The notes under the pieces are model-generated. The model saw nothing but the letters and a program-made list of their open reading frames with translations. It made no database searches and was not told the origin of the DNA. From Dehalococcoidia bacterium (GTDB taxonomy: Bacteria > Chloroflexota > Dehalococcoidia > UBA6926), in contig OZ242191.1 of NCBI GenBank assembly GCA_965205915.1, positions 1,070,003 through 1,134,002 on the forward strand: a stretch of 64,000 nucleotides of DNA, in the 5' to 3' direction. Positions within the stretch are counted from its first letter, which is position 1. Each line of letters starts with the position of its first letter. The position numbers and the translations under genes were made by a program. Shown piece after piece: positions 16,156-41,406 of the stretch.

Positions 16156-16518
16156 ATGAGCATGTTCAGGGTTGATATCAGCGTTTCAGGCGGGCCGGAT
16201 AGTGAGGCTCAGACTGTGGGAGCACTCGTCGATACCGGCACGATGCACACCGTGCTGCCGGGCAAACTGCTTCGGGACATTGGCATCAGCCCCACGCTGA
16301 CGACGGAGTTTGAGCTGGCGGACGGCAGTGTCGTTGAGTTCGAGGTGGGAACTGCGCTTGTGGCGATAAACGGGTACGACGCTGTTACACCGGTCGCGTT
16401 TGGCCCCGACGACGCTGAGCCGCTACTCGGCGCAGTTGCGCTGGAACTCATGGAATTGCTTGTCGACCCGAAGAACCGCAGACTCATCCCAACGGGTCGT
16501 GGACGCCGGCATCTGTAG
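16156..16518 (+). CDS. Retropepsin-like (clan AA) aspartic protease, paralog 1
   Basis: 'ALVDTGTMHTVLP' DTG active-site motif. About 50% identical to paralogs at 16541 and 57048. Confidence 0.6.
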   Translation: MSMFRVDISVSGGPDSEAQTVGALVDTGTMHTVLPGKLLRDIGISPTLTTEFELADGSVVEFEVGTALVAINGYDAVTPVAFGPDDAEPLLGAVALELMELLVDPKNRRLIPTGRGRRHL

Positions 16519-16540: not shown

Positions 16541-16897
16541 ATGGGACTTTTTGGCGTAGATATTCGGGTGGCCAATCCTGACGGCACCCAGGCGCGAACT
16601 GTGGACGCGCTTGTGGATACGGGGGCGTTGTACACGACTGTTCCCAGCTCCATGCTTAGGGAAATCGGCGTCGAACCCAAAGAATCCAGGGCCTTCGAGC
16701 TTGCGGATGGGTCAACAGTGGAGTATGAGGTGGGATCGGCAATTGTCTCAATCAACGGGCGTCAGGCCCTGACACCGGTTGCCTTTGGCCCGGACGACAC
16801 GGAGCCCTTGCTTGGCGCAATGGCAATGCAACAGATGGAGCTTGCCATTGACATGTCCCGCGAAATGCTCGTCAATGGGCGTAGGCTACGAATGTAG
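16541..16897 (+). CDS. Retropepsin-like (clan AA) aspartic protease, paralog 2
   Basis: 'ALVDTGALYTTVP' DTG motif. In tandem with paralog 1. Confidence 0.6.
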   Translation: MGLFGVDIRVANPDGTQARTVDALVDTGALYTTVPSSMLREIGVEPKESRAFELADGSTVEYEVGSAIVSINGRQALTPVAFGPDDTEPLLGAMAMQQMELAIDMSREMLVNGRRLRM

Positions 16898-17606: not shown

Positions 17607-18575
17607 CTAGGGGATGAGGAGGAGTTTGCCGGTGGTTTGGCGGGATTCGAGGCGGCGGTGGGCTTCGGCGGCGTCCTGTAGCGGAAATCGCTCCGAGATG
17701 CGGAGGGAGAGTTTGCCGTTGGCGATCCAGCCCAGAACATCGCTCGCGCGCCATTCGAGGTCTTCCCTGGTGACGGTGTAGTTGAAGAGGGAGGGTCTCG
17801 TCAGGTAGAGGGACTTGGCGTTGAGGGCGAGCGGAGCGATCGGCGGCACGACGCCGCTGGATTGGCCGTACATGACGAGGTAGCCGCGCAGGGCAAGGCT
17901 GGCCATCGAGCCCTCGTATGTCGTTGCGCCAACGGAGTCGTAGGCCACCTGGCAGCCCGCGCCGTCGGTGATGCGCATGACGGCTTCGTGGAAATCGTCC
18001 TGGGTGTAGAGGACGACGTGGTCTGCGCCGGCGTCTCGCGCAAGCTCCGCCTTTTCCTCCGTCGAGACGGTGGTGATGACCATCGCGCCGCGCATCTTGG
18101 CCATCTGGATGAGGAGCAGGCCGACGCCGCCCGCGCCCGCGTGGACAAGAGCCGTATCGTCGGGGCCGAGGGGATATGTGGAATGTGAGAGGTAGTGGGC
18201 GGTCATGCCCTGGAGCATGGCGGCCGCGCCCTGCTCTGCCGTGATGCCGTTCGGCAGCGTGATGAGGCGATCTGCCGGAACGACGACGCGCTCGGCGTAG
18301 GATTGGGACGCGCCGGTATAGGCGACGATATCGCCAACGGCGGGACTAGTGACGTCCGGCCCAACCTCCACGACGGTTCCCGCGCCCTCGCCGCCGAGGA
18401 TGGCGGGGAGTTGGCCGGTGCCGTAGAGGCCGGTGCGGCCATAGACGTCCATGTAGTTGATGCCGGATGCGGCGAGCTGGACGACGGCCTCGCCGGGGCC
18501 GGGGGTGGGATCGGCGACGTCCGCGTAGGTGAGAACCTCGGGGCCGCCGTATTGGGTGATCTGGACTGCTTTCAT
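17607..18575 (-). CDS. qor: NADPH:quinone oxidoreductase (zinc-type MDR superfamily)
   Basis: Start at MKAVQITQYGGPEVL. 'GAGGVGLLLIQMAK' Rossmann motif. Confidence 0.8.
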   Translation of the reverse strand: MKAVQITQYGGPEVLTYADVADPTPGPGEAVVQLAASGINYMDVYGRTGLYGTGQLPAILGGEGAGTVVEVGPDVTSPAVGDIVAYTGASQSYAERVVVPADRLITLPNGITAEQGAAAMLQGMTAHYLSHSTYPLGPDDTALVHAGAGGVGLLLIQMAKMRGAMVITTVSTEEKAELARDAGADHVVLYTQDDFHEAVMRITDGAGCQVAYDSVGATTYEGSMASLALRGYLVMYGQSSGVVPPIAPLALNAKSLYLTRPSLFNYTVTREDLEWRASDVLGWIANGKLSLRISERFPLQDAAEAHRRLESRQTTGKLLLIP

Positions 18576-18635
18576 GGGGTTGGTGCTCCTTGTGGTTGGG
18601 TTAGACGGTAAGCATCGCATAATTGGGGGTGGGGG

Positions 18636-20123
18636 TCATGGGGAGGACGCGGGATCAGTCACTTCGCAGTATGGCACGCTAGGGTTCCAATTGTAGCTCG
18701 GAAACTTCCGCCAGCTAGCAGGGGCACACCCTGTGAGCTGATTCTTTTCCAAGTAGAGTTCTTTCAAATTGGTCAAGTTACCCAATTCCGGGGGGATCTC
18801 CCCAGTAAGTTGATTATCTTCAAGTTCCAACCATTCAAGTTTGATCAAGTTGCCCAACTCTGCAGGTATTGGACCACTCAACTCGTTTTCGTGTAGGAAT
18901 AAATGGGTCAAGTTGATGAGGTTTCCCAATTCCCCTGGGATTGGACCGTTCAGCGCGTTTAGACCGAGCCATAGCCATCTCAGTTTGGTCAGAGTTCCCA
19001 GTTGCGCCGGTATCTGCCCCGTCAGTTGACCCCCGCCGAGCGACAACATTTCCAAGTTGACCAAGTTACCCAGTGCCGACGGAATCGAACCACTCACCCC
19101 TGTTCCTGAAATCCCGAGACTTTCCAAGTTGGTTAACTTTGCCAGTTCTGGCGGTATCCCACCCGTCAACAGATTTGAGCCGATGGACAGTTCTCTAAGG
19201 TTTGTCAAATTGCCCAGTTCCACAGGAATCTCACCGGTCAATTCGTTGACATAAAGAACCAATACTCTGAGGTTAGTCATGTTGCCCAGTTCCGACGGGA
19301 TTGGACCGGTCAGCTCATTGTGATTTAAGTACAGCGTTGTCAAGTTGGTCAGATCGCCTAATTCAGGTGGAATCTCTCCGCTCAATTCGTTGAAAGCCAG
19401 GGTTAGATATCTCAAGTTCTTGAGGGCACTTAGTTCTTCCGGAATCTTCCCGGACAGTTGGCCTTCAGCTAGATGCAATTCTGTGAGTTTAGTCAAGCGA
19501 CCCAATTCTGCGGGAATTTCTCCAGTTAGTTCGTTCTCACAGTGACCTATTCCAATCAGGCCGTTCAGACTGAGTAAACACGGCCTATCGCGGGGCGGCA
19601 TATCTCCCAGTCGCAACTTGGTTAGTTTCGACAATCCCGCCAGTTCAGGAGGGATCTCGCCCCGGAGCGTGTTTGATAGCAGGTTCAACTCCGTAACATG
19701 CCCCGCGTCGTTGGTGGTAACGCCATACCACTCTCCAAGAGGAGCATTGGTCAGCCAGTTACCTTTGAACCACCAGTTACGCCCATTCGTTTCGGCGTAG
19801 AGAATCTCCAGGATGATTCTCTCATCTATGGGGGTCAGCGTTGGTGTGGGGACGACTGTTGACGTTCCGGTGGGTGGCGGTGGGATTTGTGTGGGTGAGG
19901 GGGTTGCGGTGCGGGTGGGGGGCGGAGGTGTCGCCGTTGGAGAGGGGATTGGAGTTTCAGTCGGCGTTTCAGTGGGCGGAGGCGTGGGGGTTGGCAGTGG
20001 CCTGCCGCAGGCGATGAGGGCAATCGCAAAGGCGAACGCGATGGCAAGGAGCAGCGCCGTTCGTTGCGCGTTTCCACGCACGCTTTGACCCTTGATCGGT
20101 TGGTGTGCCCGAATCATGTCCAT
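18636..20123 (-). CDS. Plant-type LRR surface lipoprotein, array copy 1
   Basis: 495 aa. Lipobox 'LIACG', a Pro/Thr linker, an N-cap 'ERIILEILYAETNGRNW...NWLTNAPLGEWYGVT', about 13 LRRs 'LTGEIPxELGNLTNLxxLxL', and a C-cap 'TGCAPASWRKFPSYNWNPSVPYCEVTD'. Confidence 0.85.
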   Translation of the reverse strand: MDMIRAHQPIKGQSVRGNAQRTALLLAIAFAFAIALIACGRPLPTPTPPPTETPTETPIPSPTATPPPPTRTATPSPTQIPPPPTGTSTVVPTPTLTPIDERIILEILYAETNGRNWWFKGNWLTNAPLGEWYGVTTNDAGHVTELNLLSNTLRGEIPPELAGLSKLTKLRLGDMPPRDRPCLLSLNGLIGIGHCENELTGEIPAELGRLTKLTELHLAEGQLSGKIPEELSALKNLRYLTLAFNELSGEIPPELGDLTNLTTLYLNHNELTGPIPSELGNMTNLRVLVLYVNELTGEIPVELGNLTNLRELSIGSNLLTGGIPPELAKLTNLESLGISGTGVSGSIPSALGNLVNLEMLSLGGGQLTGQIPAQLGTLTKLRWLWLGLNALNGPIPGELGNLINLTHLFLHENELSGPIPAELGNLIKLEWLELEDNQLTGEIPPELGNLTNLKELYLEKNQLTGCAPASWRKFPSYNWNPSVPYCEVTDPASSP

Positions 20124-20214
20124 CTCGCAACGCTACTCAGTGGCGGTGTGGTGGTCAAGGATGGCGGGGGCGGCTTAGGCTGAGCGCCGCTGTCTCATTG
20201 TTGTTCAACGTTGC

Positions 20215-21651
20215 TCAGGGGGCGGGATCAGTCACTTCGCAGTATGGCACGCTAGGATGCCAATTACTAATTGGCGCCCTCCGCCAGCTAGCAGGAGCGC
20301 ACCCTGTGAGCAGATTGTTTCGGAGGTAAAGTTCTTTCAAATTGGTCAAGTTAACCAGTTCCGGGGGAATCTCGCCGCTCAATTGGTTCTTCTTGAGGTC
20401 GAGGTATTCCAAGCTGGTCAATTTGCCCAATTCAGTCGGGATTGGACCACTCAACTCATTCTCCGACAGGTTTAGACGCGTCAGGTTGACTAGGTTTCCC
20501 AATTCCTTTGGAATCTCGCCAGATATTTGGTTGTCTTGTAGCCTAAAGTCGTCGAGTCGGGTCAGAGTTGTCAGTTCCACAGGTATTTGGCCCGTCAGTT
20601 GGTTTTCGGATAGTAGGAGCGACTCCACGTTGGTCAAATTGCCCAGTTCCGATGGTATCTCTCCGGTCAACCGGTTGTAATCCAAATACAACCAGTTCAG
20701 GTTGGTCAGATTGCCTAGTTCCACCGGAATCTCTCCGCTCAACTCGTTGCTTCGGAGAACCAACCCTGTGAGATTGGTCAGGTTGCCCAGTTCCGATGGT
20801 ATCTCTCCGGTCAACTGGTTGTTTGCGAGAATCAACCATTTCAGGTTGGTCAGGTTGCCCAGTTCCGATGGTATCTCTCCGGTCAACTGGTTGTGATCCA
20901 GATACAACCAGTTCACGTTGGTCAAATTGCCCAGTTCCGATGGTATCCCTCCGGTCAACTGGTTGTTTGAGAGATACAACCAGTTCAGGTTGGTCAGGTT
21001 GCCCAGTTCCGATGGTATCTCTCCGGTCAACCGGTTATTTGCGAGAATCAACCATTTCAGGTTGGTCAGGTTGTCCAGTTCCGATGGTATCTCTCCGCTC
21101 AACTGGTTGTTTTCGAGAACCAACACTGTGAGATTGGTCAGGTTGCCCAGTTCCGATGGTATCTCTCCGGTCAACTGGTTGTCATTGAGATACAACTCCG
21201 TGAGATTGGTCAGGTTGCCCAACTCCGCCGGGATCTCGCCGTTCAGTTCATTTTCTGCCAAGAATAAAGTAGTGACGCGCCCCATGTCGTTGGTGGTAAC
21301 GCCATACCACTCTCCCAATGGGGCATCGGTCAACCAATTGTCGTTGCGTGTCCAGTTACCGCCGTCGGTCGACAAATAGAACGCCTCCAGAAAAGGCCTC
21401 TCGTCTATGGGAACCAACGTTGGAGTGGGGACGACTGTTGAGGTGACAGTCGGCGGCGGTGGTATACGTGTGGGCACGGCGGTCACTGTGGGCGGCGGTG
21501 TTGCTGTTGGCGTGGGGGTTGGGAGGGGCCTGCCGCAGGCGATGAGCGCAATCGAAAAGGCGAGCGCGATGACAAGGAGCAGCGCCACTCGTTGCGCGTT
21601 TCGACGCACGCTGTGACCTTTGATCGGTTCGTTTCTTCGAACTACATCCAT
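20215..21651 (-). CDS. Plant-type LRR surface lipoprotein, array copy 2
   Basis: 478 aa with the same architecture. The internal repeats are near-identical at the nucleotide level. Confidence 0.85.
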   Translation of the reverse strand: MDVVRRNEPIKGHSVRRNAQRVALLLVIALAFSIALIACGRPLPTPTPTATPPPTVTAVPTRIPPPPTVTSTVVPTPTLVPIDERPFLEAFYLSTDGGNWTRNDNWLTDAPLGEWYGVTTNDMGRVTTLFLAENELNGEIPAELGNLTNLTELYLNDNQLTGEIPSELGNLTNLTVLVLENNQLSGEIPSELDNLTNLKWLILANNRLTGEIPSELGNLTNLNWLYLSNNQLTGGIPSELGNLTNVNWLYLDHNQLTGEIPSELGNLTNLKWLILANNQLTGEIPSELGNLTNLTGLVLRSNELSGEIPVELGNLTNLNWLYLDYNRLTGEIPSELGNLTNVESLLLSENQLTGQIPVELTTLTRLDDFRLQDNQISGEIPKELGNLVNLTRLNLSENELSGPIPTELGKLTSLEYLDLKKNQLSGEIPPELVNLTNLKELYLRNNLLTGCAPASWRRAPISNWHPSVPYCEVTDPAP

Positions 21652-21660
21652 CCCGCAACG

Positions 21661-21866
21661 CTACTCAGCGGCGGTTTGTTGGTCAAGGATTGCGGGGAGT
21701 TGGCCGGTGCCGTAGAGGTCGGTGCGGCCGTACACGTCCATGTAGTTGATGCCGGATGCGGCGAGTTGGACGATGGCCTCGCCGGGGCCGGGGGCGGGAT
21801 CCTCGACGTCCGTGTAGGTGAGGACATCGGGCCCGCCGTATTGGGTTATTTGGACTGCTTTCATGG
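21661..21866 (-). pseudogene. Duplicated 5' fragment of qor (about the first 68 codons)
   Basis: The translation 'MKAVQITQYGGPDVLTYTDVEDPAPGPGEAIVQLAASGINYMDVYGRTDLYGTGQLPAILDQQ...' and the DNA are nearly identical to 18396..18575. Confidence 0.7.
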
Positions 21867-21967
21867 GGTTGTTGCTCCTTGGGTTGGTTGGTGGCGGGGC
21901 GGCACATTGCGCCGCTCGAAAGGCGGGATACGTCAGGTTGTAAGCATCGCATAATTGGGTGTGCGGG

Positions 21968-23755
21968 TCATGGGGCGTTCTCGCAGAATGGCAGATATAG
22001 CTTTTCGAAATCATTCGCCCTGATATTTCTCAACTCAGAGGGTATACAGCCCACAATTTGGTTTCCGCTAATTTCAAGCCACGTTAAGTTGACCAGGTCT
22101 GCGAGACGCGCTGGTATTTCTCCCGTGAACTCGTTATTGGAGAGGACCAACGATTTCAGACTGGTCAAGTTGCCCACATGTTCCGGTATTTCTCCGCTCA
22201 GCGCATTGCCTCGGAGAAACAGTGCCATGAGATTGGCCAGGTTACCCAATTCAGGTGGCAGCTCTCCGCTCAAGTCGTTGTTGGAAAGGATTAATGTTTC
22301 CAAATTGGTCAGGCGGGCAAGTTCCTTTGGTATAGCACCGCTCAAATCGTTGTGGCTAAAGGACGCCCAGGTCAAGCTGGTCAGGTTTCCTAGTTCTGGT
22401 GGTATCTCTCCGCTAAGGTCGTTCCCGCCAAGGTTCAACGACGTCAGGTTGGACAGCAAACCAAGTTCCGCCGGTATATTTCCATGAATTCGATTTCCCT
22501 CGATGCCGAGGGACTCCAGGTCATTCAGGTTTGCCAGTTGCTTCGGTATCTCTCCTGTCAGTTCGTTGAGTGAGAGACTCAGAAACACTAGATTGGCCAA
22601 CCTGTCAATTTCCGGGGAGATTTCCCCGGTCAATTGGTTCTCCGCGAGTGACAACAATTCGAGATTGGACAAGTTCAAGAGCTCATCGGGTATTTCGCCG
22701 CTCAACTGGTTTATGCTCAGATCCAGAGATCGCAAGTTGGTCATTTTCCCAAGTTCAGGCGGTATCTCACCACTCAATTGATTTGTGCTCAGATTCAATG
22801 ACTGCAAATTGGGCCAGTGCGCAAGTTCAGGCGGAATCTCACCGCTAAATTGATTGGAGCTCAGGTTCAACGATTTCAAGTTGGCCAGTCGAGTGAGTGC
22901 AACCGGTATTTCGCCACCCAATTGATTACTGTACAGCGCCAGTTCCTCTAGCTGCGTCAGCCTAGTCAGTTCCACCGGTATCGATCCTTCCAGGTTGTTA
23001 GCACCTAGCGACAGAATCGTCAAGCCGGTTAGTCTGCCAATGCTCGGCGGAATCTGTCCCTCAAAATCGTTGCCGTCCAAAAGCAGCACTCTCAAACCTG
23101 TCAGTTCGGTAAGTTCCATGGGAATGTCCCCGCTCAGCAGGTTTTGGGACAATATGAGTTCTTGCAGGTTTTCCAGGTTGGTGAATTCCCCTGGAATCTC
23201 ACCACTCAAATGGGTGAACCGGAGATACATATGAGTAAGGTTCGACAGTTGGCCCAATTCCGGTGGGATCTCTCCGCCCAAGTAGTTGTGCGAAAGCAGC
23301 AACTTTCTCAGGTTGGTTAAGCTGCCCATTTCCGGTGGGAGGGAACCAACTAACCAATTGTCACCAATGTCCACTTCTACGACGCGCCCCGTTTCGTCGG
23401 CGGTCACGCCATACCATTCTCCGAGAGGAGCGTCGGTTAGCCAGTTATCATTGCGTTTCCAGTTGTCTCCCTTGGTCGATAAGTAGAGCGCTTCAAGCAC
23501 CGGCCTATCTACAGACATAGGAATTGCCATCTGAGTGGGCGCAGGTATCGGCGTTGGCGTGGGTATCGCGGTCGATGTGGGCGCGGGTGTGGCGGTCATC
23601 GTGGGTGGGGGCGTTATCGTCGGCTCTTCATCGCCATCGCAAGCCGCAGGCAGAGCGAAGAGGCCTAGCGCGATGACAAGGAGCAGCGCCGCTCGTTGCG
23701 CGCTTCCACGCACACTGTGACCTTTGATCGGTTGGTGTGCCCGAACTATGTCCAT
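21968..23755 (-). CDS. Plant-type LRR surface lipoprotein, array copy 3
   Basis: 595 aa. Lipobox 'LPAAC', N-cap 'DRPVLEALYLSTKGDNWKRNDNWLTDAPLGEWYGVT', about 18 LRRs, and a C-cap 'GCIPSELRNIRANDFEKLYLPFC'. Confidence 0.85.
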   Translation of the reverse strand: MDIVRAHQPIKGHSVRGSAQRAALLLVIALGLFALPAACDGDEEPTITPPPTMTATPAPTSTAIPTPTPIPAPTQMAIPMSVDRPVLEALYLSTKGDNWKRNDNWLTDAPLGEWYGVTADETGRVVEVDIGDNWLVGSLPPEMGSLTNLRKLLLSHNYLGGEIPPELGQLSNLTHMYLRFTHLSGEIPGEFTNLENLQELILSQNLLSGDIPMELTELTGLRVLLLDGNDFEGQIPPSIGRLTGLTILSLGANNLEGSIPVELTRLTQLEELALYSNQLGGEIPVALTRLANLKSLNLSSNQFSGEIPPELAHWPNLQSLNLSTNQLSGEIPPELGKMTNLRSLDLSINQLSGEIPDELLNLSNLELLSLAENQLTGEISPEIDRLANLVFLSLSLNELTGEIPKQLANLNDLESLGIEGNRIHGNIPAELGLLSNLTSLNLGGNDLSGEIPPELGNLTSLTWASFSHNDLSGAIPKELARLTNLETLILSNNDLSGELPPELGNLANLMALFLRGNALSGEIPEHVGNLTSLKSLVLSNNEFTGEIPARLADLVNLTWLEISGNQIVGCIPSELRNIRANDFEKLYLPFCENAP

Positions 23756-23841
23756 CCCGCAACGCTACTCAGCGCCAGTACATATGTCAAAGACGGTGGG
23801 TGCAGAAGTATCCCGCTCGGTGGGTGAACTTGTGTCGGTGT

Positions 23842-26106
23842 CTACTCGGGATCGTGGAGGGCGCGGTAGACCTTTTCTGCTGTTATGGGGAGGTGGGTGA
23901 TGCGCGCGCCGGAGGCGGCGGCGACGGCGTTGGCGATGGCGGGCGAGGAGAGGACGATGGGGGTGTCGCCGATGCCGCGCACCTGGTAAGGGCCGTGGCC
24001 GGTTTCCGATTCGAGCACGACGACGTCCATGCGCGCGGCGTCGCGGTGGGTCTGGAGTTTGTATTCGGCGAATGAGGGGTTGGCGATGCTGCCGTCCTGC
24101 TCAACAAGCTCCTCGGACAGCGCGTGGCCGATGCCCTGCACGGAGCCGCCCTCGATCTGGCCGACGAATCCCATGGGGTTGAGGACGCGGCCCGTTTCAT
24201 GGGCAGCCGTGTATCGGAGCAACGTGACTTCGCCGGTCTCGGGATCGACCTCAACCTCGGCGATGTGTGTGCCAAATGAGATGTAGGGGCTGCTATCGCC
24301 CTCGTCGACCGTTACCTGTCCGCCGACGGGCTCCCCTGCCCTTGTGGCGATTTCTTCGATGGCGACGGCGGCGGCGCGGCCTTCGCCGGATACCTGGCCG
24401 TCCTTGAACTCGATGGACTCTTCCGTCCAGCCGTAGAACTCGGCGGCGAGTCGGCGCAGGTTGCGCTTGGCTTCCTGGCTGGCCTCATAGGCGGCGCGGC
24501 TCGATACTCGCGCGCCACGCTGACCGCCGATGCCCCAGTCACGCACACCGGCCTCAGTGGACCAGGTCTCGACAGTGACACGGTCGATGGGCAGGCCGAG
24601 TTCCTCGGCGACGATCTGCGCGAGGATGGTGCCGGTTCCGACGCCGGGATCATAGGTCATGGTGTTGACGATGACACGGCCATCGGGGTGGATGTTGACG
24701 GCGGCGGGGGCGTCAAAGCCGGTATCGGTCTGTCCGTGCAGGGCGATGCCGCGTCCCACGTTGGGCGGCGCAGGCGTGGCATAGTCGGCGGCGTCCGCGG
24801 CGGCGCGCAGGATTTCCTCTGCTCTCATACTCTGGTAGCCGTCCGCGCCGGGGGTGGCGACGGGGCTCCAGCCTCGGTCAGGGTGAGCATCGCCGGAAGA
24901 GTGAACGACGTTTCGCAATCGCAGTTCGTATGGATCGATGCCGAGCTTGTGGGCAAGGTCATCTATGATGGACTCAGATGCGAAGACGGATTGCATCAGG
25001 CCGGGGCCTCGGAAGTAGCCGCACGGGACGGTGTTTGTATAGACCTGGTTGGAGATGATGCGGACGTTGTCGACGCGGTACGGCTCCACCATGGACGTGC
25101 GCAAGAGGCCGCCATAGGCAGGAACGGGGGCATAGGCGGCATAGGCGCCGGTGGCGAAGTAGCCCTCCGCGTCCCATGCGGTGATCGTGCCGTCCTTTTT
25201 CGCGCCGACGCGCACTCGCACGACGGAGGGGTGGCGGGGGTTCATGGCGGTGAACTCTTCCGCGTAGTCCATGACCCACTTGACGGGGTGGCCGGTCTTC
25301 TTGGCGAGCAGGTAGCCAACGACGACGCCGGTTGGATCCATTTTGCCACCGAATGATCCTCCAAGGGGCGCGGGATGGATTATCACATCGTCGCGCGGGA
25401 GGCCCATGACGCGGGCCAAGTGGGGGCGGCGGCCGGTCGGCATCTGGCAGGACATCCATATATGGGCGCGTCCCTCATCGTCGATGTCGACAACGGCAGT
25501 GTGCGGCTCCAGGTAGACCTGATGGACGCGGGGGGTGCGGAACTCTCGCTCCACGACCACCTCGGCGTCACGGAACGCGGCATCGACATCGCCCCATTCG
25601 TGAACCATGCGGCCGTAGTTGTTGCTGAGTTGCTCAAGCTGCTCGACGCCGCGGTACTCGTTGTAGTCGGGGTGGATGAGGATGGCGTCGGGCTTGGAGG
25701 CTTCTTCGGGGTCAAGCAGCGCGGGCAGTTCTTCGTAGGTGACGTCGATGAGGCTGAGGGCTGCTTCGGCGATGTCATTATCGTCGGCGACGACGGCGGC
25801 GACCTTATCACCGATGAATCGGACGCGATCGGCGGAGGCGAGGATCGGTTCGTCCACATAGAGGTTGCCGGCGCGTTGGTCAGGAACATCATCGCCGGTG
25901 AGGACGCCGTGGACGCCGGGCAAGGCGAGGGCGCGAGAGGCATCGATGTTGAGGACGCGCGCGTGGGGGACGGGAGAGCGGAGGTATTTGAGCCGGAGGG
26001 CGTTGGGGGGGGCTATATCAAGGGCGTAGCGGGCGCGGCCAGTGACCTTGTCCGGCCCATCGACGGCGCGGACGGATTTGCCGATCACCTTGTATTCAGT
26101 AGTCAT
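23842..26106 (-). CDS. Xanthine dehydrogenase/aldehyde oxidase-family molybdopterin-binding subunit
   Basis: 754 aa. N-terminal 'KVTGRARYALDI' a/b hammerhead and molybdenum cofactor-binding motifs. No adjacent FAD or Fe-S subunit genes. Confidence 0.8.
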   Translation of the reverse strand: MTTEYKVIGKSVRAVDGPDKVTGRARYALDIAPPNALRLKYLRSPVPHARVLNIDASRALALPGVHGVLTGDDVPDQRAGNLYVDEPILASADRVRFIGDKVAAVVADDNDIAEAALSLIDVTYEELPALLDPEEASKPDAILIHPDYNEYRGVEQLEQLSNNYGRMVHEWGDVDAAFRDAEVVVEREFRTPRVHQVYLEPHTAVVDIDDEGRAHIWMSCQMPTGRRPHLARVMGLPRDDVIIHPAPLGGSFGGKMDPTGVVVGYLLAKKTGHPVKWVMDYAEEFTAMNPRHPSVVRVRVGAKKDGTITAWDAEGYFATGAYAAYAPVPAYGGLLRTSMVEPYRVDNVRIISNQVYTNTVPCGYFRGPGLMQSVFASESIIDDLAHKLGIDPYELRLRNVVHSSGDAHPDRGWSPVATPGADGYQSMRAEEILRAAADAADYATPAPPNVGRGIALHGQTDTGFDAPAAVNIHPDGRVIVNTMTYDPGVGTGTILAQIVAEELGLPIDRVTVETWSTEAGVRDWGIGGQRGARVSSRAAYEASQEAKRNLRRLAAEFYGWTEESIEFKDGQVSGEGRAAAVAIEEIATRAGEPVGGQVTVDEGDSSPYISFGTHIAEVEVDPETGEVTLLRYTAAHETGRVLNPMGFVGQIEGGSVQGIGHALSEELVEQDGSIANPSFAEYKLQTHRDAARMDVVVLESETGHGPYQVRGIGDTPIVLSSPAIANAVAAASGARITHLPITAEKVYRALHDPE

Positions 26107-26183: not shown

Positions 26184-26561
26184 TCAGCCCATGTGAACGT
26201 GCTGGATGACGATATCCAAGCCTGATGCTCGGGAAAGCCGAGCGTCGACAGTCAGCAGGGGGAGGTTCCGAGCACGGGCGGCAGCAACATAAAGGGCGTC
26301 ATAGGCGCTGATGTTTTGGTAGTGCTCCCACGCCAACGGCGCAAGGATGCGATGAGATATGCGTTCAATGGGCCACAAGAGCAAAGCGCTAATGGGCAGC
26401 CGCGCTCTCGCCTCTTCCAGCTTGCCGCCCAGCACTTGTCTCCGCAACACCGACAAAACTTCCGCGTCAATCAATTCAGGCGCAGCCAACGACGCGTTGT
26501 CGATTGTGCCCGCCAAACGGCCTCTGCCGTTGACTTCCTTGGGGAATTCTTGCTGGTTCAT
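26184..26561 (-). pseudogene. N-terminally truncated vapC paralog (PIN domain lacking the first catalytic Asp)
   Basis: The last ~100 aa are nearly identical to the C-terminus of the intact VapC at 28071..28472. The N-terminus is replaced by unrelated sequence. Confidence 0.5.
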
Positions 26562-26659
26562 GGATCTCTTGACATTCGGCGATACGGCCCTGATGATCCC
26601 CTAACTTTACCATCGGCAAGGAGGCCACGACCCGTAGGGGGACGAGAGAGTCTAATTTT

Positions 26660-27787
26660 TCACTCTGAATCGAGATACGGAAGAAGGTCGGCCGGTTCCA
26701 TAGCTCTGCGTTCTACCTCTACCCGTAACTCCAATTCGCACTCTATTGGCTTCGGTAAATTGTCACCGCGAAGCTCCCCTTGCAACACTACAGTGCAAGG
26801 CTCAGTAGATCCAACAAACAGCTCATTGTCCGTCCATGCATAGTCACTCGGGCGGACATTTCCGAAGTCGATTTCAATCTCCCAGCGGTCAGTGAGTTCC
26901 CTGACCTTAATGTCTATGTCATCGGGACTACTTGCGGCCAGCCCATGTATATTGCCGAAGGGTGTTCTTGATGGGGGATTACTATACCAGTCTTTGATGA
27001 TTAGCCCTTCAGTCTTGGTGGCGTGACCGACAAAGCGCACTTGTCGAGCTGGTACATCGCTTGTGTTTTCGAGTCGCAGGCCAACCGAATTGACGAGTGC
27101 CCTCTCGGCAGCGTACAAGATCACTTCCCGCGGATAATTGTTGTTGATTAGGGGGTCTATGCTCAAAAAGGAGCGGCGCTGTTGCGGGAATATGCTATCA
27201 GCGAGTCGCGGTTCAAGGATTTGTGACCGAACGGCGTGGGGCGATGGCAGGACTTCCCTTTTTCTGTTGTCGGCCCACTGGAGCGAGAGATCAGGTGTGA
27301 GTTCGGCGGCAACCTCGGCGCCCATTTTCGCTATCTCATCAGGGTTTGCAACTCTTGTTGAGCTGCCGCCTCTTATGAAGACGTTGTTCGCACCCAATTT
27401 GCCAAACTTTTGCTTTAGGTATGTGGGGCGATGCTGTTGCGGGATTTCAATGACCCCGATAGAGACGCCCTCTATCGGAACCGCGTAGTAGGAGAAATCA
27501 ACATGGCGCTGCGTCTTACCGTTGACGAACTGTTGAAGGTTAGAATCGTCCAAGTGATCCTGAACGCCGACCACCTCACTGCGCCCACCCTTGGCCTCCT
27601 TTACTCCAATAAGGATGTACGCCGTTGTTCGTCGCCATGAATTGGCGAAGGCCAGTATGTCCTTCAGTAGCTCGGCCTTCGCACCGATATCCGCATTAGC
27701 AAAGGGATACTGTTCTGACTTGAAATCTAGGGCCGTCCCCTCAGGTTCATGCAGCAGAGACTCCAGAAACGATAAATCAATAGGCAT
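26660..27787 (-). CDS. AlbA_2/Schlafen-like (PF04326) domain protein with an unknown C-terminal domain; candidate defense gene
   Basis: 375 aa in a low-GC stretch. N-terminal 'EGTALDFKSEQY...ILAFANSWRRTTAYILIGVKEAKGG..VVGV' matches the AlbA_2 signature. Confidence 0.6.
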   Translation of the reverse strand: MPIDLSFLESLLHEPEGTALDFKSEQYPFANADIGAKAELLKDILAFANSWRRTTAYILIGVKEAKGGRSEVVGVQDHLDDSNLQQFVNGKTQRHVDFSYYAVPIEGVSIGVIEIPQQHRPTYLKQKFGKLGANNVFIRGGSSTRVANPDEIAKMGAEVAAELTPDLSLQWADNRKREVLPSPHAVRSQILEPRLADSIFPQQRRSFLSIDPLINNNYPREVILYAAERALVNSVGLRLENTSDVPARQVRFVGHATKTEGLIIKDWYSNPPSRTPFGNIHGLAASSPDDIDIKVRELTDRWEIEIDFGNVRPSDYAWTDNELFVGSTEPCTVVLQGELRGDNLPKPIECELELRVEVERRAMEPADLLPYLDSE

Positions 27788-32532: not shown

Positions 32533-33753
32533 TCAACCCTGAGACGGCGACGGCTCGCAGTAGGGCAGATTGAGGGCAGAGAGGTCGTTGATGGCCACGC
32601 CCCGGAGCGCCAGCGGGATGCAGCCGGTGAAGTTGTTGCCCGAAAGGGACAGGGTATTTAGCATGGCGAGATTGCCCACTGCGGGGAGTATTGTGCCCGT
32701 CAGGCTGTTGTCTGAGAGCCGGAATTCCTGAAGATTTGACCACTGTGCGAGCCCCCTCAACATCTCCCCGGTCAAGGCGTTGTGGCTTAGATCCAGGTGC
32801 GTCAGAGCGGAGAGGTACCGCAGCTGGATGGACATAAATCCCATCAGGCGTCGATTGGGCAACAGGAGCCTTGTAATTCGCTGTGGGGTCCCCTCCATCG
32901 TCACCCCTTCCCAACTTGTAATAGGGGTGTCCAGACTCCAGTTGAGGACCTCCGCGCCCCCAAGGTAGTCTTTCACGGTGAGCAGGTATATGCAGTCACG
33001 CATGAGGCCGGGATTGTCGGCCTCATGCGGTATTGCGCGGGCGCACGGCGCTTCGATGATGTTGGGTTCGCCGTAGCCGGAGTACGTGTACTCCACAACG
33101 CGAATTTCAGTATTAGACGAGCCGTCGTATCCCGGTGGAAAAAACGTTCTGCGGCCCCGAATTGGCCACCCTGCGGAATCGGCCCAGTACTCGACCCGCG
33201 TGGCTCCCTCTTGTTCAGACAGGAATCTTTCGGACACATAGTGCGGCTCATCAGATGAGCCGGAGGCTGCTTCTTCGACGCTGCTCGGGTCCAGACATAT
33301 CGGTCGGGTGAACAACTGACGAACGTTGGTATGAACACCCCATTCGCCGTAGACCTCGGGTTTGCCCGGCGCGCTTTCCCGGGAGTAATACGTGTCGTCC
33401 TTAAATATGTGTTCGTCCTTGCCCAATAGGACGCCTTCGGGGTCGCTAAACGTCGTCAGGAAGTGCTCGTCGCTCCCCGAGTATCGAAACTCTGCTTTCA
33501 ATCCCGTGAATAGCGCCGCTCCTGTCACCATGGCGTCAAACGGTGTGTATATCAGATTGCAGGCCACTCCCGCAATTGCCGGGGCAGAGGTTGGCGTGGG
33601 CGTGGATACCGCGGTAGGCGTAGGGTCAGTGACTGGCCTGAGTGTCGGCGTGGGGCTAGAAGGCGGCACAGGTTCGGGCGCAGCTGTGCCGCAGCCGGTG
33701 AGCAGGAGAAGCGCTGCAAGTAGGACGAGGATTGGTGGCGCGTGCCTGAGCAT
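32533..33753 (-). CDS. Lipoprotein with an unknown N-terminal domain and a C-terminal plant-type LRR module with an LRRNT-like cap
   Basis: Lipobox 'LLLTGC'. 'DNPGLMRDCIYLLTVKDYLGGAEVLNWSLDTPITSWEGVTMEG' then 4 LRRs, ending '...LNLPYCEPSP'. Confidence 0.75.
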   Translation of the reverse strand: MLRHAPPILVLLAALLLLTGCGTAAPEPVPPSSPTPTLRPVTDPTPTAVSTPTPTSAPAIAGVACNLIYTPFDAMVTGAALFTGLKAEFRYSGSDEHFLTTFSDPEGVLLGKDEHIFKDDTYYSRESAPGKPEVYGEWGVHTNVRQLFTRPICLDPSSVEEAASGSSDEPHYVSERFLSEQEGATRVEYWADSAGWPIRGRRTFFPPGYDGSSNTEIRVVEYTYSGYGEPNIIEAPCARAIPHEADNPGLMRDCIYLLTVKDYLGGAEVLNWSLDTPITSWEGVTMEGTPQRITRLLLPNRRLMGFMSIQLRYLSALTHLDLSHNALTGEMLRGLAQWSNLQEFRLSDNSLTGTILPAVGNLAMLNTLSLSGNNFTGCIPLALRGVAINDLSALNLPYCEPSPSQG

Positions 33754-33816: not shown

Positions 33817-35136
33817 CTAGCAATAGGGCAGGTTCAGCGATGCCAGGTCGTTTGTGGGCACGTTCTCCAGGGCGATGGGGATGCAACCGGTGAGGGAGTT
33901 CCTCGCCAGGCGAATCTCATCCAGGCCTGATAGCTGTCCCACTTCCGGCGGAATGTTCCCCGTGAGGCTCTTGTTTGTCAGCACCAGCTTTGTTACCCGA
34001 ATCGGCGTTCCCTCGACGGTTACGCCGTTCCAGTTAGCGATGGATTTGTCCAGGCCCCAGTTCAGCGTGGCGGTTCCCCGGAGTGTGTCCTTGGCCGCCA
34101 GGAGCGCAAAGCAGTCGGTCATGAGGCCGGGATTGTCGAGCTGGTTGGATACGATGAGTCCACATGGCGGCGGTGGTTGCACAGGCGGGCCGTCAGAGTG
34201 GTTGTAGGCGCCGGTATCTCTGTAGAACTGACTCAGTTGATTGGCGTCAGTGATCAGCAAGGGCAGGTCTTCATCGGCGCCGATTCGCCCGCTGTATTCG
34301 GTGACGCGCTCCTGGTGGGCCTCCGTCACTGCCCGTCTAAAGGCGGGGAGTTCCATCCCCAGTTGGGAGCGGTAAGTCCTATAGTCGTCGGAATAAGCTC
34401 TCCACAAGTCTCTAAGAGGATGAACGGCGATCACAGAGCCGTCCTCCTGCCGCTCTACATCCCAAGTAATGAACTCCTCCCACGTCTCTACCGCGTTGAA
34501 GAGCTCCCATGCCTCGGCCGAGGCGTCATACCACGGGCCGATGAACAAGATAACCTCAGCGCCTTCAATCCCGCCCGGCGCAATACCGGCGGCGGAACTG
34601 AAGTATCCACCTTCAACGAACCTCCGTTCGTTATAGATTCGCGATCCCCGCGCGTGCTCTTGCCTTTCCTCTTCACTTATTTCTGCAGGAGAATACGAAT
34701 AGGAACTCTCATCCACCAGGACTGTAAGAATAGGCGGTCCAGAGCCGAGGACGTCGGAATTCACACGCACGCCCACGTAACACCTGGTCGCAGTAGCGTG
34801 TATCCATTCAGACTCATCGTTCGTGTTGTCGTCTGGAGGCCAGCGAAATCGGGCGTCTGAAACGTTGCACCGAACCGTGCCGGGGAGGTAAGTGCCGCGC
34901 AGTACAATAGAGTTGACCCAGGCCGTGCTAGGGGAAAAGGGCTCAAGGAAAGACCGCATCGGCAGGAAGTTGGGAGTAAGGACTCCGTCGGCCAGCCAGT
35001 ACACGTCAGGCTCGCAGGGATCCAAGGCAGAGCCTTCCACCGGCGTGCAGGGGGGGTATTTCTTCCTCAAGGTATCCGGAGTACGGCGAAGTGGACTGTC
35101 CGTCATCACACGCCGCGAGCAGTAGAATCGCTGCAA
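33817..35136 (-). CDS. Paralogous LRR lipoprotein; the signal peptide lies in a different frame (35086..35172) across a C7 tract
   Basis: The body 'DNPGLMTDCFALLAAKDTLRGTATLNWGLDKSIANWNGVTVEG' plus LRRs is in one frame. The signal peptide 'MSRYAPPILALIAAILLLAACDDGQ' is in another frame. A G7/C7 run at 35050..35056 lies between them. Confidence 0.65.
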   Translation of the reverse strand: MQRFYCSRRVMTDSPLRRTPDTLRKKYPPCTPVEGSALDPCEPDVYWLADGVLTPNFLPMRSFLEPFSPSTAWVNSIVLRGTYLPGTVRCNVSDARFRWPPDDNTNDESEWIHATATRCYVGVRVNSDVLGSGPPILTVLVDESSYSYSPAEISEEERQEHARGSRIYNERRFVEGGYFSSAAGIAPGGIEGAEVILFIGPWYDASAEAWELFNAVETWEEFITWDVERQEDGSVIAVHPLRDLWRAYSDDYRTYRSQLGMELPAFRRAVTEAHQERVTEYSGRIGADEDLPLLITDANQLSQFYRDTGAYNHSDGPPVQPPPPCGLIVSNQLDNPGLMTDCFALLAAKDTLRGTATLNWGLDKSIANWNGVTVEGTPIRVTKLVLTNKSLTGNIPPEVGQLSGLDEIRLARNSLTGCIPIALENVPTNDLASLNLPYC

Positions 35137-41020: not shown

Positions 41021-41097
41021 AGGAGCGTAGCTCAGCCCGGAAGAGCGACGGTCTCCAAAACCGTTGGCCGGGGGTTCGAATCCCTCCGCTCCTGCCA
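41021..41097 (+). tRNA. tRNA-Trp (CCA)
   Basis: Acceptor aggagcg/cgctcct, anticodon loop ctCCAaa, 3' CCA encoded. Confidence 0.8.
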
Positions 41098-41179
41098 GCG
41101 CTCCCAACGTGAGAGCCGTTAGGCTGTCATCGTGTTGTCAGAGGGCGAGGCCCGCGGAAGATACCGCGCCGGGTCAAAT

Positions 41180-41266
41180 GCCGAGGTGGTGGAATTGGTA
41201 GACACGCTGTCTTGAGGGGGCAGTGGGCGAAAGCTCGTAGGAGTTCAAATCTCCTCCTCGGCACCA
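41180..41266 (+). tRNA. tRNA-Leu (GAG), class II with a long variable arm
   Basis: Acceptor gccgagg/cctcggc, anticodon loop ttGAGgg, variable arm tgggcgaaagctcgt, CCA encoded. Confidence 0.75.
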
Positions 41267-41329
41267 CACCCTCGACAACGGGGCTAAGATAGATACTCTG
41301 TCAGGTATACGGCAGATAGCCGGAACCGG

Positions 41330-41406
41330 GGCGACGTAGCCAAGTGGTTTAAGGCGGGGGACTGCAAATCCCCTATTCGTGGGTTCGAATCCCGCCGTCG
41401 CCTCCA
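41330..41406 (+). tRNA. tRNA-Cys (GCA)
   Basis: Acceptor ggcgacg/cgtcgcc, anticodon loop ctGCAaa, CCA encoded. Confidence 0.8.

Follow-up and report, generated by a model that had tools for sequence, protein, structure and literature searches.

The stretch analysed here, called the window, is a 64,000-nucleotide segment of a Dehalococcoidia bacterium (contig OZ242191.1, positions 1,070,003 to 1,134,002) which carries three leucine-rich repeat (LRR) genes, LRR1, LRR2 and LRR3, head-to-tail on the minus strand, with qor downstream and xdh upstream. A first-pass annotation, made from the sequence alone, had described them as three co-directional paralogs, and their open reading frames (ORFs) were confirmed at the reported lengths (Table 1). 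The reading that we consider most probable, at roughly 0.68, is that the xdh-qor interval is a variable locus which stacks secreted LRR surface proteins and which was built by qor-anchored recombination followed by mosaic exchange.

Closer relatives were found by a QOR protein search (89–94% aa identity), and their contigs were then compared with the window; related loci are referred to by L numbers. Between xdh and qor, L164, L165, and L166 have no LRR gene and only an 80-nt spacer, L162, L163, L001, L004, and L023 have one copy, L159 (on a circular 2.4-Mb contig) has three like the window, and L160 and L161 have four. Within this Dehalococcoidia lineage, the xdh-qor site is a hotspot of variation in the presence and copy number of LRR genes, and array copy number in related genomes, which had been proposed as a check, ranges from 0 to 4. 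The xdh and qor DNA of the Dehalococcoidia metagenome-assembled genomes (MAGs) L001, L004, and L023 is ~79–80% identical to that of the window, and these MAGs keep its gene order, with a single LRR gene between the two. A single scan of metagenome contigs with qor returned nothing nearer than 68% and was uninformative.

In the multi-copy loci, a truncated copy of qor (qor') lies among the LRR genes. The order is LRR3, qor', LRR2, LRR1 in the window, LRRa, LRRb, qor', LRRc in L159, and LRR, qor', LRR2-like, qor' (39 nt), LRR, LRR1-like in L161. The relic is thus flanked differently among genomes, which points to later gains or losses on both sides of it. Apparently decayed copies are seen as well. 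The single LRR gene of L023 (10001-11400) is interrupted by an in-frame stop, its 3' end is frameshifted, and it is likely a pseudogene; the LRR gene of L162 has a stop 10 codons past the promoter-proximal ATG. Copy decay appears to belong to the dynamics of the locus, the alternative being sequencing errors in low-coverage long-read contigs.

The relic itself had been reported as a copy of the qor 5' end between the second and third LRR genes. It is indeed homologous to resident qor, with 91–92% identity between 21685-21864 and 18396-18575, but it comprises 60 codons (180 nt) and not the ~68 codons first given, and one end had been placed 2 nt off. Identity to the qor genes of single-copy relatives is only 72–76%, and since the relic is much closer to resident qor than to these, it arose within this lineage. 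The spacer was copied along with it (94% identity between 21940-21975 and 18608-18643). The duplicated spacer is interrupted by a 43-nt insert (21886-21928) that neither the resident spacer nor any of the relatives examined has and that resembles the AGCGGCGC...GCCGCCCC(C)GCCAYC motif of the LRR2-LRR1 spacer.

The homology of qor' ends at ...CCCCGCAATCC, where it is joined directly to the upstream block of LRR2, beginning TTGACC. At the same point, intact qor reads CCCCGCCATCCTCGG and the LRR1 upstream region reads CCCCGCCATCCTTGACC. The join therefore falls in a short stretch common to both (CCCCGCCATCCT/TTGAC), the kind of site expected for illegitimate recombination. The same junction between the 60 qor codons and TTGACC is present in L159, L160, and L161, whose relics have in common a 5-nt deletion that is missing from the window relic, and the lineages of the window, L159, L160, and L161 differ by ~9% in the first 180 nt of qor. 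Because it is common to the window, L159, and L161 lineages, the junction is, judging from these alignments, old and predates their split. A candidate reading in which qor' was a recent event (92% identity) and the segment LRR3-spacer-qor' had been imported from another strain was dropped, as the junction is common to L159, L160, and L161. A second qor relic of 39 nt occurs in L160 and L161. It joins the -10 block through a GAG microhomology and follows an L023-type spacer, which indicates a second, independent qor-anchored join; at least two joins thus involved the 5' end of qor.

The recurrence of the junction also bears on whether the array is an artefact, that is, a chimera of strain haplotypes with 1–2 LRR genes each, misjoined in the repeats or in qor. 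Repeats are difficult to assemble, and strains from a single sample differ at the locus, L159, L160, and L161 all being derived from ERZ25074053, but an assembler overlap would need more than the ~12 nt that the qor'::promoter junction has in common with its parents, and the three copies are well diverged and each a complete ORF. As the same junction is found in three other contigs, including the circular 2.4-Mb contig at 14x coverage, an assembly chimera is very unlikely.

The first-pass annotation had the array grow by unequal crossing-over with the LRR gene plus the qor leader as the repeated unit. A recent in-situ triplication of one LRR gene by repeated crossing-over of such a fixed unit would explain why the qor relic and spacer lie between LRR3 and LRR2, why the promoter block and the first 21 residues recur in all three copies, and why only one gene is present in more distant relatives. 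A truncated copy of the flanking gene at a junction and copy-number polymorphism at the same site, both looked for as signs of a tandem array, were found. Paralogue similarity in proportion to junction age was not: qor' and qor are 91–92% identical and the LRR bodies 48–69%. The LRR bodies are thus far more diverged than qor'/qor, so that exchange, conversion, or older paralogy is required besides.

Growth by a repeated unit also fails at the second internal junction, as a qor fragment is present at only one of the two. Between LRR2 and LRR1, no recognisable qor fragment was found beyond CCCCGCCATCC directly upstream of TTGACC. About 30 nt of this spacer align to the 3' end of qor', but only with 4 gaps, and 12 nt match exactly; the spacer is orthologous to the one preceding the last LRR gene of L161. 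The 11–12 nt CCCCGCCATCC upstream of LRR1 may be a qor remnant or native promoter-upstream sequence. Paralogue N-caps are 31–40% diverged in DNA, and the C-terminus of LRR3 ~50% from those of LRR1 and LRR2, as against 8–9% for qor'/qor. Moreover, each N-cap is nearer its positional orthologues in L001, L004, and L023 (64–76% aa) than its array neighbours (63–64%), and L159, which has the old junction in common with L161, carries its extra copy on the other side of the relic. Recent triplication is therefore an improbable account of the array.

Under the preferred reading of a locus built by qor-anchored recombination and exchange, illegitimate or unequal recombination would have joined qor codon 60 to an LRR promoter at CCCCGCCATCCT/TTGAC, leaving the 60-codon relic and its spacer between two LRR genes before the lineages of the window, L159, and L161 split. 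Later duplications, losses, and the second qor-anchored join (the 39-nt relic of L160 and L161) would have altered copy number on either side of the relic, and exchange of segments between co-occurring lineages would have produced a mosaic with pieces from ~50% to 100% identical.

Such a mosaic is seen along the genes. LRR1 and LRR2 are 64% identical as proteins and LRR1 and LRR3 51%. In DNA, LRR1 and LRR2 are 85% identical in the signal peptide, 74% in the linker, 69% in the N-cap, and 81% in the last 60 codons, and the corresponding values for LRR3 against LRR1 and LRR2 are 77%, 60%, 60–66%, and 48%. Housekeeping identity between the window and L161 is 96.0% for uvrA, 93.8% for xdh, and 92.3% for qor. 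In LRR2, a 360-nt stretch (within 21081-21440) is 100% identical to L161 and 20635-21440 is 88–100% identical, whereas elsewhere the identity is ~58% (signal peptide and linker) or 51–76% (3' third). By our own estimate, 360 nt without a difference at ~5% background divergence has a p of roughly 1e-8; taken from the alignment, the identical patch marks a recent exchange between lineages, by transfer or by conversion. Segments of very different age thus lie side by side in the locus, a patchwork for which duplication alone is insufficient.

Base composition also sets the LRR genes apart. As the first-pass annotation had noted, the GC content of the LRR bodies (~0.50) is lower than that of the flanks (0.63–0.69; uvrA, qor, and xdh 0.63–0.67). 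With the codon usage of the flanks, the LRR bodies would have a GC content of 0.59–0.62, so amino-acid composition accounts for only part of the difference. GC at third codon positions (GC3) is 0.58–0.65 in the LRR genes and 0.79–0.84 in the flanks, the codon ATA makes up 41% of Ile codons as against 6%, and GGC 33% of Gly codons as against 86%. The GC3 deficit is likewise present in orthologues of relatives that are ~20% diverged, and the atypical composition is thus long-standing. It would fit a gene pool that moves between genomes.

Each LRR start codon is overlapped by the 20-nt block CATCYCGCAACGCTACTCAG, which occurs exactly three times in the window (20121, 21649, and 23753; chance expectation 0.00), as had been claimed for a conserved block at these starts. 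The pattern TTGACN, 16–18 nt, TAnnnT, 5–7 nt, ATG was found 3 times in 128 kb of searched strand, always at LRR starts, and it also precedes the orthologous LRR genes of L004, L159, L160, L161, and L163. The first gene after xdh, which is LRR3 in the window, has TTGACA both here and in the relatives, and every internal copy has TTGACC, which fits internal promoters descending from one junction. The block looks like a promoter carried by each LRR copy, and with such an element directly against each first ATG, independent expression of the copies is probable.

Table 1. Positions of the LRR genes, the qor relic, the junction elements, and the flanking genes in the window.
Feature	Position	Strand	Remarks
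LRR1	18636-20123	minus	495-aa lipobox protein
LRR2	20215-21651	minus	478-aa lipobox protein
LRR3	21968-23755	minus	595-aa paralogue with 19 LRRs
qor	17607-18575	minus	Intact; NADPH:quinone oxidoreductase-like, ADH_N + ADH_zinc_N, 322 aa
qor' relic	21661-21864	minus	First 60 qor codons (21685-21864), then 7 unrelated codons and a stop
Duplicated LRR-stop-to-qor spacer	21865-21975	minus	Includes qor Shine-Dalgarno AAGGAG
Resident LRR1-stop-to-qor spacer	18576-18643	minus	Parental copy of the duplicated spacer
Promoter-like block, LRR1	20124-20158	minus	TTGACC, 17 nt, TAGCGT, 6 nt, ATG
Promoter-like block, LRR2	21652-21686	minus	TTGACC, 17 nt, TAGCGT, 6 nt, ATG; 5' edge is the qor' junction
Promoter-like block, LRR3	23756-23790	minus	TTGACA, 17 nt, TAGCGT, 6 nt, ATG
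LRR2-LRR1 spacer	20124-20214	minus	91 nt
LRR2 segment, N-cap to ~repeat 4	21081-21440	minus	98–100% identical to L161
xdh-family molybdopterin-binding oxidoreductase large subunit	23842-26106	minus	Upstream flank; conserved left border of the variable locus

The start of qor was set at MKAVQ (18575) by homology with relatives; the open frame extends to 18620.

The LRR period is strictly 24 residues (72 nt) by both a DNA repeat finder and protein parsing, with 13 regular repeats and one degenerate segment in LRR1, 14 very regular repeats in LRR2, and 19 in LRR3. The consensus of 43 repeats is LxxLxLxxNxL(S/T)GEIPxELGNLTN, and the frequencies at its positions are 0.88 for L1, 0.88 for L4, 0.86 for L6, 0.91 for N9, 0.86 for L11, 1.00 for G13, 0.95 for I15, 0.98 for P16, 0.88 for L19, 0.63 for G20, and 0.93 for L22, with S or T at position 12. 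The published consensus of the plant-specific (PS) class is LxxLxLxxNxL(t/s)GxIPxxLGxLxx, with a length of 23–25 residues (PMC2946307). Since the 24-residue length and the frequencies fit this consensus, the repeats of LRR1-3 are of the PS class, as first proposed, and not of the 20-residue “bacterial” class. The degenerate segment of LRR1 (residues 167-188; 19560-19625) has 22 residues with 2 Cys (LTKLRLGDMPPRDRPCLLSLNG...GHC) and replaces one repeat; it may represent either a small island or a repeat in decay.

All three proteins match Pfam LRR_1, LRR_4, LRR_8, and LRR_14 (E 1e-26 to 1e-59), including the LRR_8 profile that had been named as a check. In a phmmer search against all PDB sequences, plant LRR receptor kinases (LRR-RKs) came out on top, with GSO1 (5e-158) followed by FLS2, PEPR1, and TDR, and Leptospira bacterial LRR proteins ranked far below them. 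The NCBIfam curated bacterial LRR families compared (internalins, XopAC/XopAE/XopL, and Leptospira LIC_11051) gave scores of 22–160 bits, the best being 99–160 bits, and none of their cut-offs (450–1600 bits) was reached. The AlphaFold model of LRR2 has a mean pLDDT of 87.8 (~98 in the solenoid) and consists of a signal-peptide helix (15-38), a disordered Pro/Thr region (39-79), and a capped solenoid, in which the predicted repeat unit is a strand, a second short strand in most repeats, and a 5-residue helix. When this predicted structure was compared with the PDB by Foldseek, the best 50 matches were all plant LRR-RK ectodomains, with a TM-score of at most 0.75, a root-mean-square deviation of 1.2–2.3 Å, and an identity of 30–44%.

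The proteins are ordered as a signal peptide with a lipobox that is canonical in LRR1 and LRR2 and degenerate in LRR3, a disordered Pro/Thr spacer of 45–60 residues (~60 aa in LRR1), an N-cap, a solenoid of 14–19 LRRs, and a two-Cys C-cap, and they terminate 3–10 residues past the C-cap Cys. Neither a C-terminal transmembrane helix nor a kinase domain was found in the sequence ends or the Pfam scan. Of the plant-like, Trp-rich N-cap that had been assigned to each protein, the motif stands. It is exact (NWLTDAPLGEWYGVT) in LRR2 and LRR3 and reads NWLTNAPLGEWYGVT in LRR1, with N instead of D. Over its second half, the N-cap is in register with the plant CxWxGVxC and the first repeat (EWYGVTTNDMGRVTTLFL vs NWTGITCDSTGHVVSVSL in FLS2), and the alignments with RGFR1, GSO1, and MIK2 are in register as well. 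Both plant Cys are, however, replaced (EWYGVTT), and Pfam LRRNT_2 (PF08263) matched neither the full proteins (E<=0.01) nor the isolated caps (E<=10). The C-cap TGCAPASWR...PSVPYC, also assigned to each copy, occurs in LRR1 and LRR2 only; LRR3 has VGCIPSELRNIRANDFEKLYLPFC (GCIPSEL..NDF..LYLPFC), which is of the family-consensus type.

The window contains two more genes for proteins with this kind of C-terminal module, at 32533-33753 (minus strand, 406 aa, with the canonical lipobox LLLLTGC) and 33817-35109 (minus strand, 430 aa). Their caps are LRRNT-like with the Cys kept (NPGLxxDCxxLLxxKDxLxGxxxLNW..W.GVT) and are followed by 2–4 plant-class LRRs and a C-cap GCIPxAL..NDL..LNLPYC. The N-terminal 250–300 residues of both proteins are unrelated to any Pfam family, and the 430-aa protein has no Pfam match.

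The family to which LRR1-3 belong is large. A search of 5.8 billion proteins gave >7,900 homologues at E<=1e-10, the best of them 45–62% identical; nearly all are unnamed metagenomic proteins, and the few named ones come from Gemmatimonadota, Dehalococcoidia, and an archaeon. An N-cap motif scan of species-representative genomes yielded 306 relatives. The best 78 of these, assigned to phyla by MAG label, comprise loci of Chloroflexota (37, of which 33 are Dehalococcoidia), Gemmatimonadota (28), Acidobacteriota (5), Latescibacterota (4), Rhodothermales/Saprospiraceae (3), and one other. The LRR family is thus a large bacterial one, found in MAGs of at least five phyla. At least two co-directional N-cap motifs are present in 47 of these 78 loci, which indicates that tandem arrays are usual for the family.

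As originally defined, the PS class was confined to extracellular plant proteins (PMC2244805). That restriction does not hold here, as the genes are bacterial and have thousands of prokaryotic homologues, and the class name is outdated with regard to distribution. The first-pass description of the features as plant hallmarks “rather than typical bacterial” is accordingly right for repeat class and fold and misleading for the family, which is a very large bacterial one. The PS-LRR class, the plant-like fold, the low GC, and the atypical codon usage could suggest a recent direct acquisition of receptor ectodomains from a plant or alga. Against this, the nearest relatives are the thousands of bacterial and archaeal metagenomic proteins (45–62% identity, as compared with 30–44% to plants), no plant or algal sequence was seen nested in the bacterial clade at >70% identity, and the N-cap is without the plant Cys and fails LRRNT_2. 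The signal peptide with its lipobox and the promoter are bacterial, and the low GC3 extends to ~20%-diverged orthologues, so the composition is old. Recent acquisition from a plant or alga is the most improbable of the explanations considered.

Sequence variation among the repeats is concentrated on one face of the solenoid. Over the 43 repeats, the entropy is 2.8–3.6 bits at positions 2, 3, 5, 7, and 8, where the concave beta-sheet has its exposed residues, also 2.8 bits at positions 10 and 17, and 0–1 bit at the conserved L/N/G/I/P positions of the scaffold. The repeats of LRR2 hardly differ in their convex half, GEIPSELGNLTN. With hypervariable concave-face positions of LxxLxLxxN on a near-invariant GEIPxELGNLTN scaffold, the concave sheet is the likely ligand-binding surface, and the LRR paralogues probably bind different ligands.

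As to cellular location, the lipobox pattern of the PROSITE PS51257 type ({DERK}(6)-[LIVMFWSTAG](2)-[LIVMFYSTAGCQ]-[AGS]-C) matches at Cys39 in LRR1 (AFAFAIALIAC) and LRR2 (ALAFSIALIAC), and orthologues retain the motif L-x-A-C-G-E/R-P-L-P-T around this Cys. The LRR proteins are probably secreted and lipid-anchored on the membrane's outer face, from which the Pro/Thr stalk would hold them off. By analogy with related systems, they probably bind host or other extracellular macromolecules, and the locus probably serves to diversify the surface repertoire.

Several points weigh against this picture of expressed, surface-anchored, and ligand-binding proteins from a recombining locus. A sigma-70/terminator consensus scanner did not call the promoter-like block, which it missed because the -10 box agrees at 3/6 positions only, and its calls within the repeats were at chance level. 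The block (6 nt from -10 to ATG) was dropped as proof of leaderless mRNAs on two grounds: the promoter-proximal ATG of L162 and L163 does not share the reading frame of the LRR ORF, and codon 10, which is ATC in the window, is matched by an ATG in L004, L162, and L163. LRR3 (..FALPAAC) fails the lipobox pattern with a Pro at -3, so the lipobox that had been claimed for every copy stands in LRR1 and LRR2 and not in LRR3 (LPAAC). A start at the first ATG puts the Cys at residue 39, beyond the usual 15–35; an in-frame GTG at codon 15, preceded by AAGG, would make the lipobox Cys residue 25. The dN/dS of ~1.3 at concave codons, vs 0.27 elsewhere (Nei-Gojobori, 9 most similar LRR2 repeats), is a contrast over 5 codons and non-independent repeat pairs and is suggestive only. 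The order of events is a reconstruction, and the apparent ages could be misleading if qor' and qor have undergone gene conversion with each other. Finally, the link to sponges rests on related MAGs only, exact-sequence look-ups of LRR2 and qor in the public collection gave no match, and the ENA samples of the nearest relatives state no host.

That link comes from four related loci in SB066x bins, a sample series which also yielded sponge-associated Entoporibacteria (PMC7883664). LRR eukaryotic-like proteins (ELPs) are recognised in sponge symbionts, among them Chloroflexi of the SAR202 and Caldilineae groups, and both horizontal spread and a role in host interaction have been proposed for them (PMC6306507, PMC11706023, PMC3909097). 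All three LRR proteins fall under the definition by Pfam PF00560/PF12799/PF13855 (PMC11706023), and they resemble the sponge-symbiont ELPs in their LRR_1, LRR_4, and LRR_8 matches, in frequent signal peptides, and in the multi-copy enrichment seen in symbionts. The sponge ELP papers give counts of Pfam domains, and the sub-family in the window, with its Cys-free LRRNT-like N-cap and GCxP...C C-cap, is undescribed there, as are the architecture of lipobox and Pro/Thr linker and the locus dynamics described here.

Proteins of the same architecture could instead have a non-host role as binders of substrates or microbes or as phage decoys or receptors, with variability driven by phage or competitor pressure. 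A defence islet alongside the array (a PIN toxin and a Schlafen/AlbA_2 protein in the window, Type ISP/IIG and PIN/PhD genes in relatives) agrees with this, as do presence/absence variation and mosaicism, which are typical of phage-exposed surface proteins, and the habitat of the window genome is unproven. On the other hand, no phage genes or tRNA were seen adjoining the array, the MAG lineages in which the family is concentrated include bins from sponge metagenomes, and the literature ties LRR ELPs to host interaction, if by inference only. A non-host role has some chance of being correct, though a rather small one.

The defence islet lies at 26184-27787 (minus strand) directly upstream of xdh, and GC falls to 0.52–0.56 there. 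In L159, L160, L162, L163, and L166, this spot is taken by restriction-modification genes of Type ISP/IIG and by PIN/PhD toxin-antitoxin pairs. On the other side of the array, between uvrA and qor, is a tandem pair of small retropepsin-like aspartyl proteases (16156-16518 and 16541-16897, both plus strand; Pfam gag-asp_proteas / Asp_protease_2), of which the relatives L159 and L160 have 1–2 copies in the same place. Rfam and tRNA scans of the window found only 5 tRNAs, none close to the array, and no sign of a mobile element; a tRNA trio (Trp-CCA, Leu-GAG, and Cys-GCA) at 41021-41406 is unrelated to the array.

Among known proteins, the ectodomains of plant LRR-RKs and receptor-like proteins (FLS2, GSO1, PEPR1, TDR, MIK2, BRI1) and the polygalacturonase-inhibiting protein (PGIP) are like LRR1-3 in repeat class, fold, and two-Cys C-cap. 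Unlike the plant receptors, the window proteins are without a transmembrane helix, kinase, island domains, and N-cap Cys, and have a bacterial lipobox N-terminus. Listeria internalins, Leptospira LIC proteins, and Xanthomonas XopAC/XopAE/XopL also present LRR solenoids at the interface with a eukaryotic host, and several form tandem multi-gene families, but they differ in having SDS22-like, typical, or bacterial repeats and LPXTG/GW modules or type III secretion. Miyashita, Kuroki and Matsushima have reportedly described plant-specific LRRs in bacteria and discussed their horizontal transfer.

Tandem arrays of surface-protein genes are known to grow and shrink through gene conversion and through unequal or illegitimate recombination, as in contingency-type loci. 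The xdh-qor locus is like these arrays in its copy-number range of 0–4, in the junction relics of a neighbouring gene, in conserved 5' ends with divergent interiors, and in the 100%-identical patch between lineages. Unlike contingency-type loci, it shows no dedicated recombinase, invertible promoter, or silent cassettes, and its variation is at the population level, without evidence of programmed switching.

A further possibility, which we regard as speculative and hold at low probability, is that the site is a population-level “surface identity” locus at which co-resident symbionts swap and stack LRR cassettes from a pool spanning at least five phyla by homology-facilitated, illegitimate joins in qor. 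The family, whose LRRNT-like cap has a Cys-containing version in the two further genes of the window, would then be a candidate bacterial counterpart or source of the plant ectodomain fold. If this were true, the locus would give each strain a different ligand-binding repertoire towards the host.

LRR ELPs are a much-cited signature of symbionts in sponges and other animals, usually in the form of mere Pfam counts. Plant-class LRRs in bacteria and LRR-rich symbionts are already known, and the xdh-qor locus is no new kind of system. What it adds is a defined sub-family architecture, with variability focused on the concave face, and a resolved example of array growth with datable junction relics, a series of 0–4 copies at one site, and a 100%-identical exchanged patch, by which the diversification of LRR repertoires and their ligands become testable by population genomics and binding assays.

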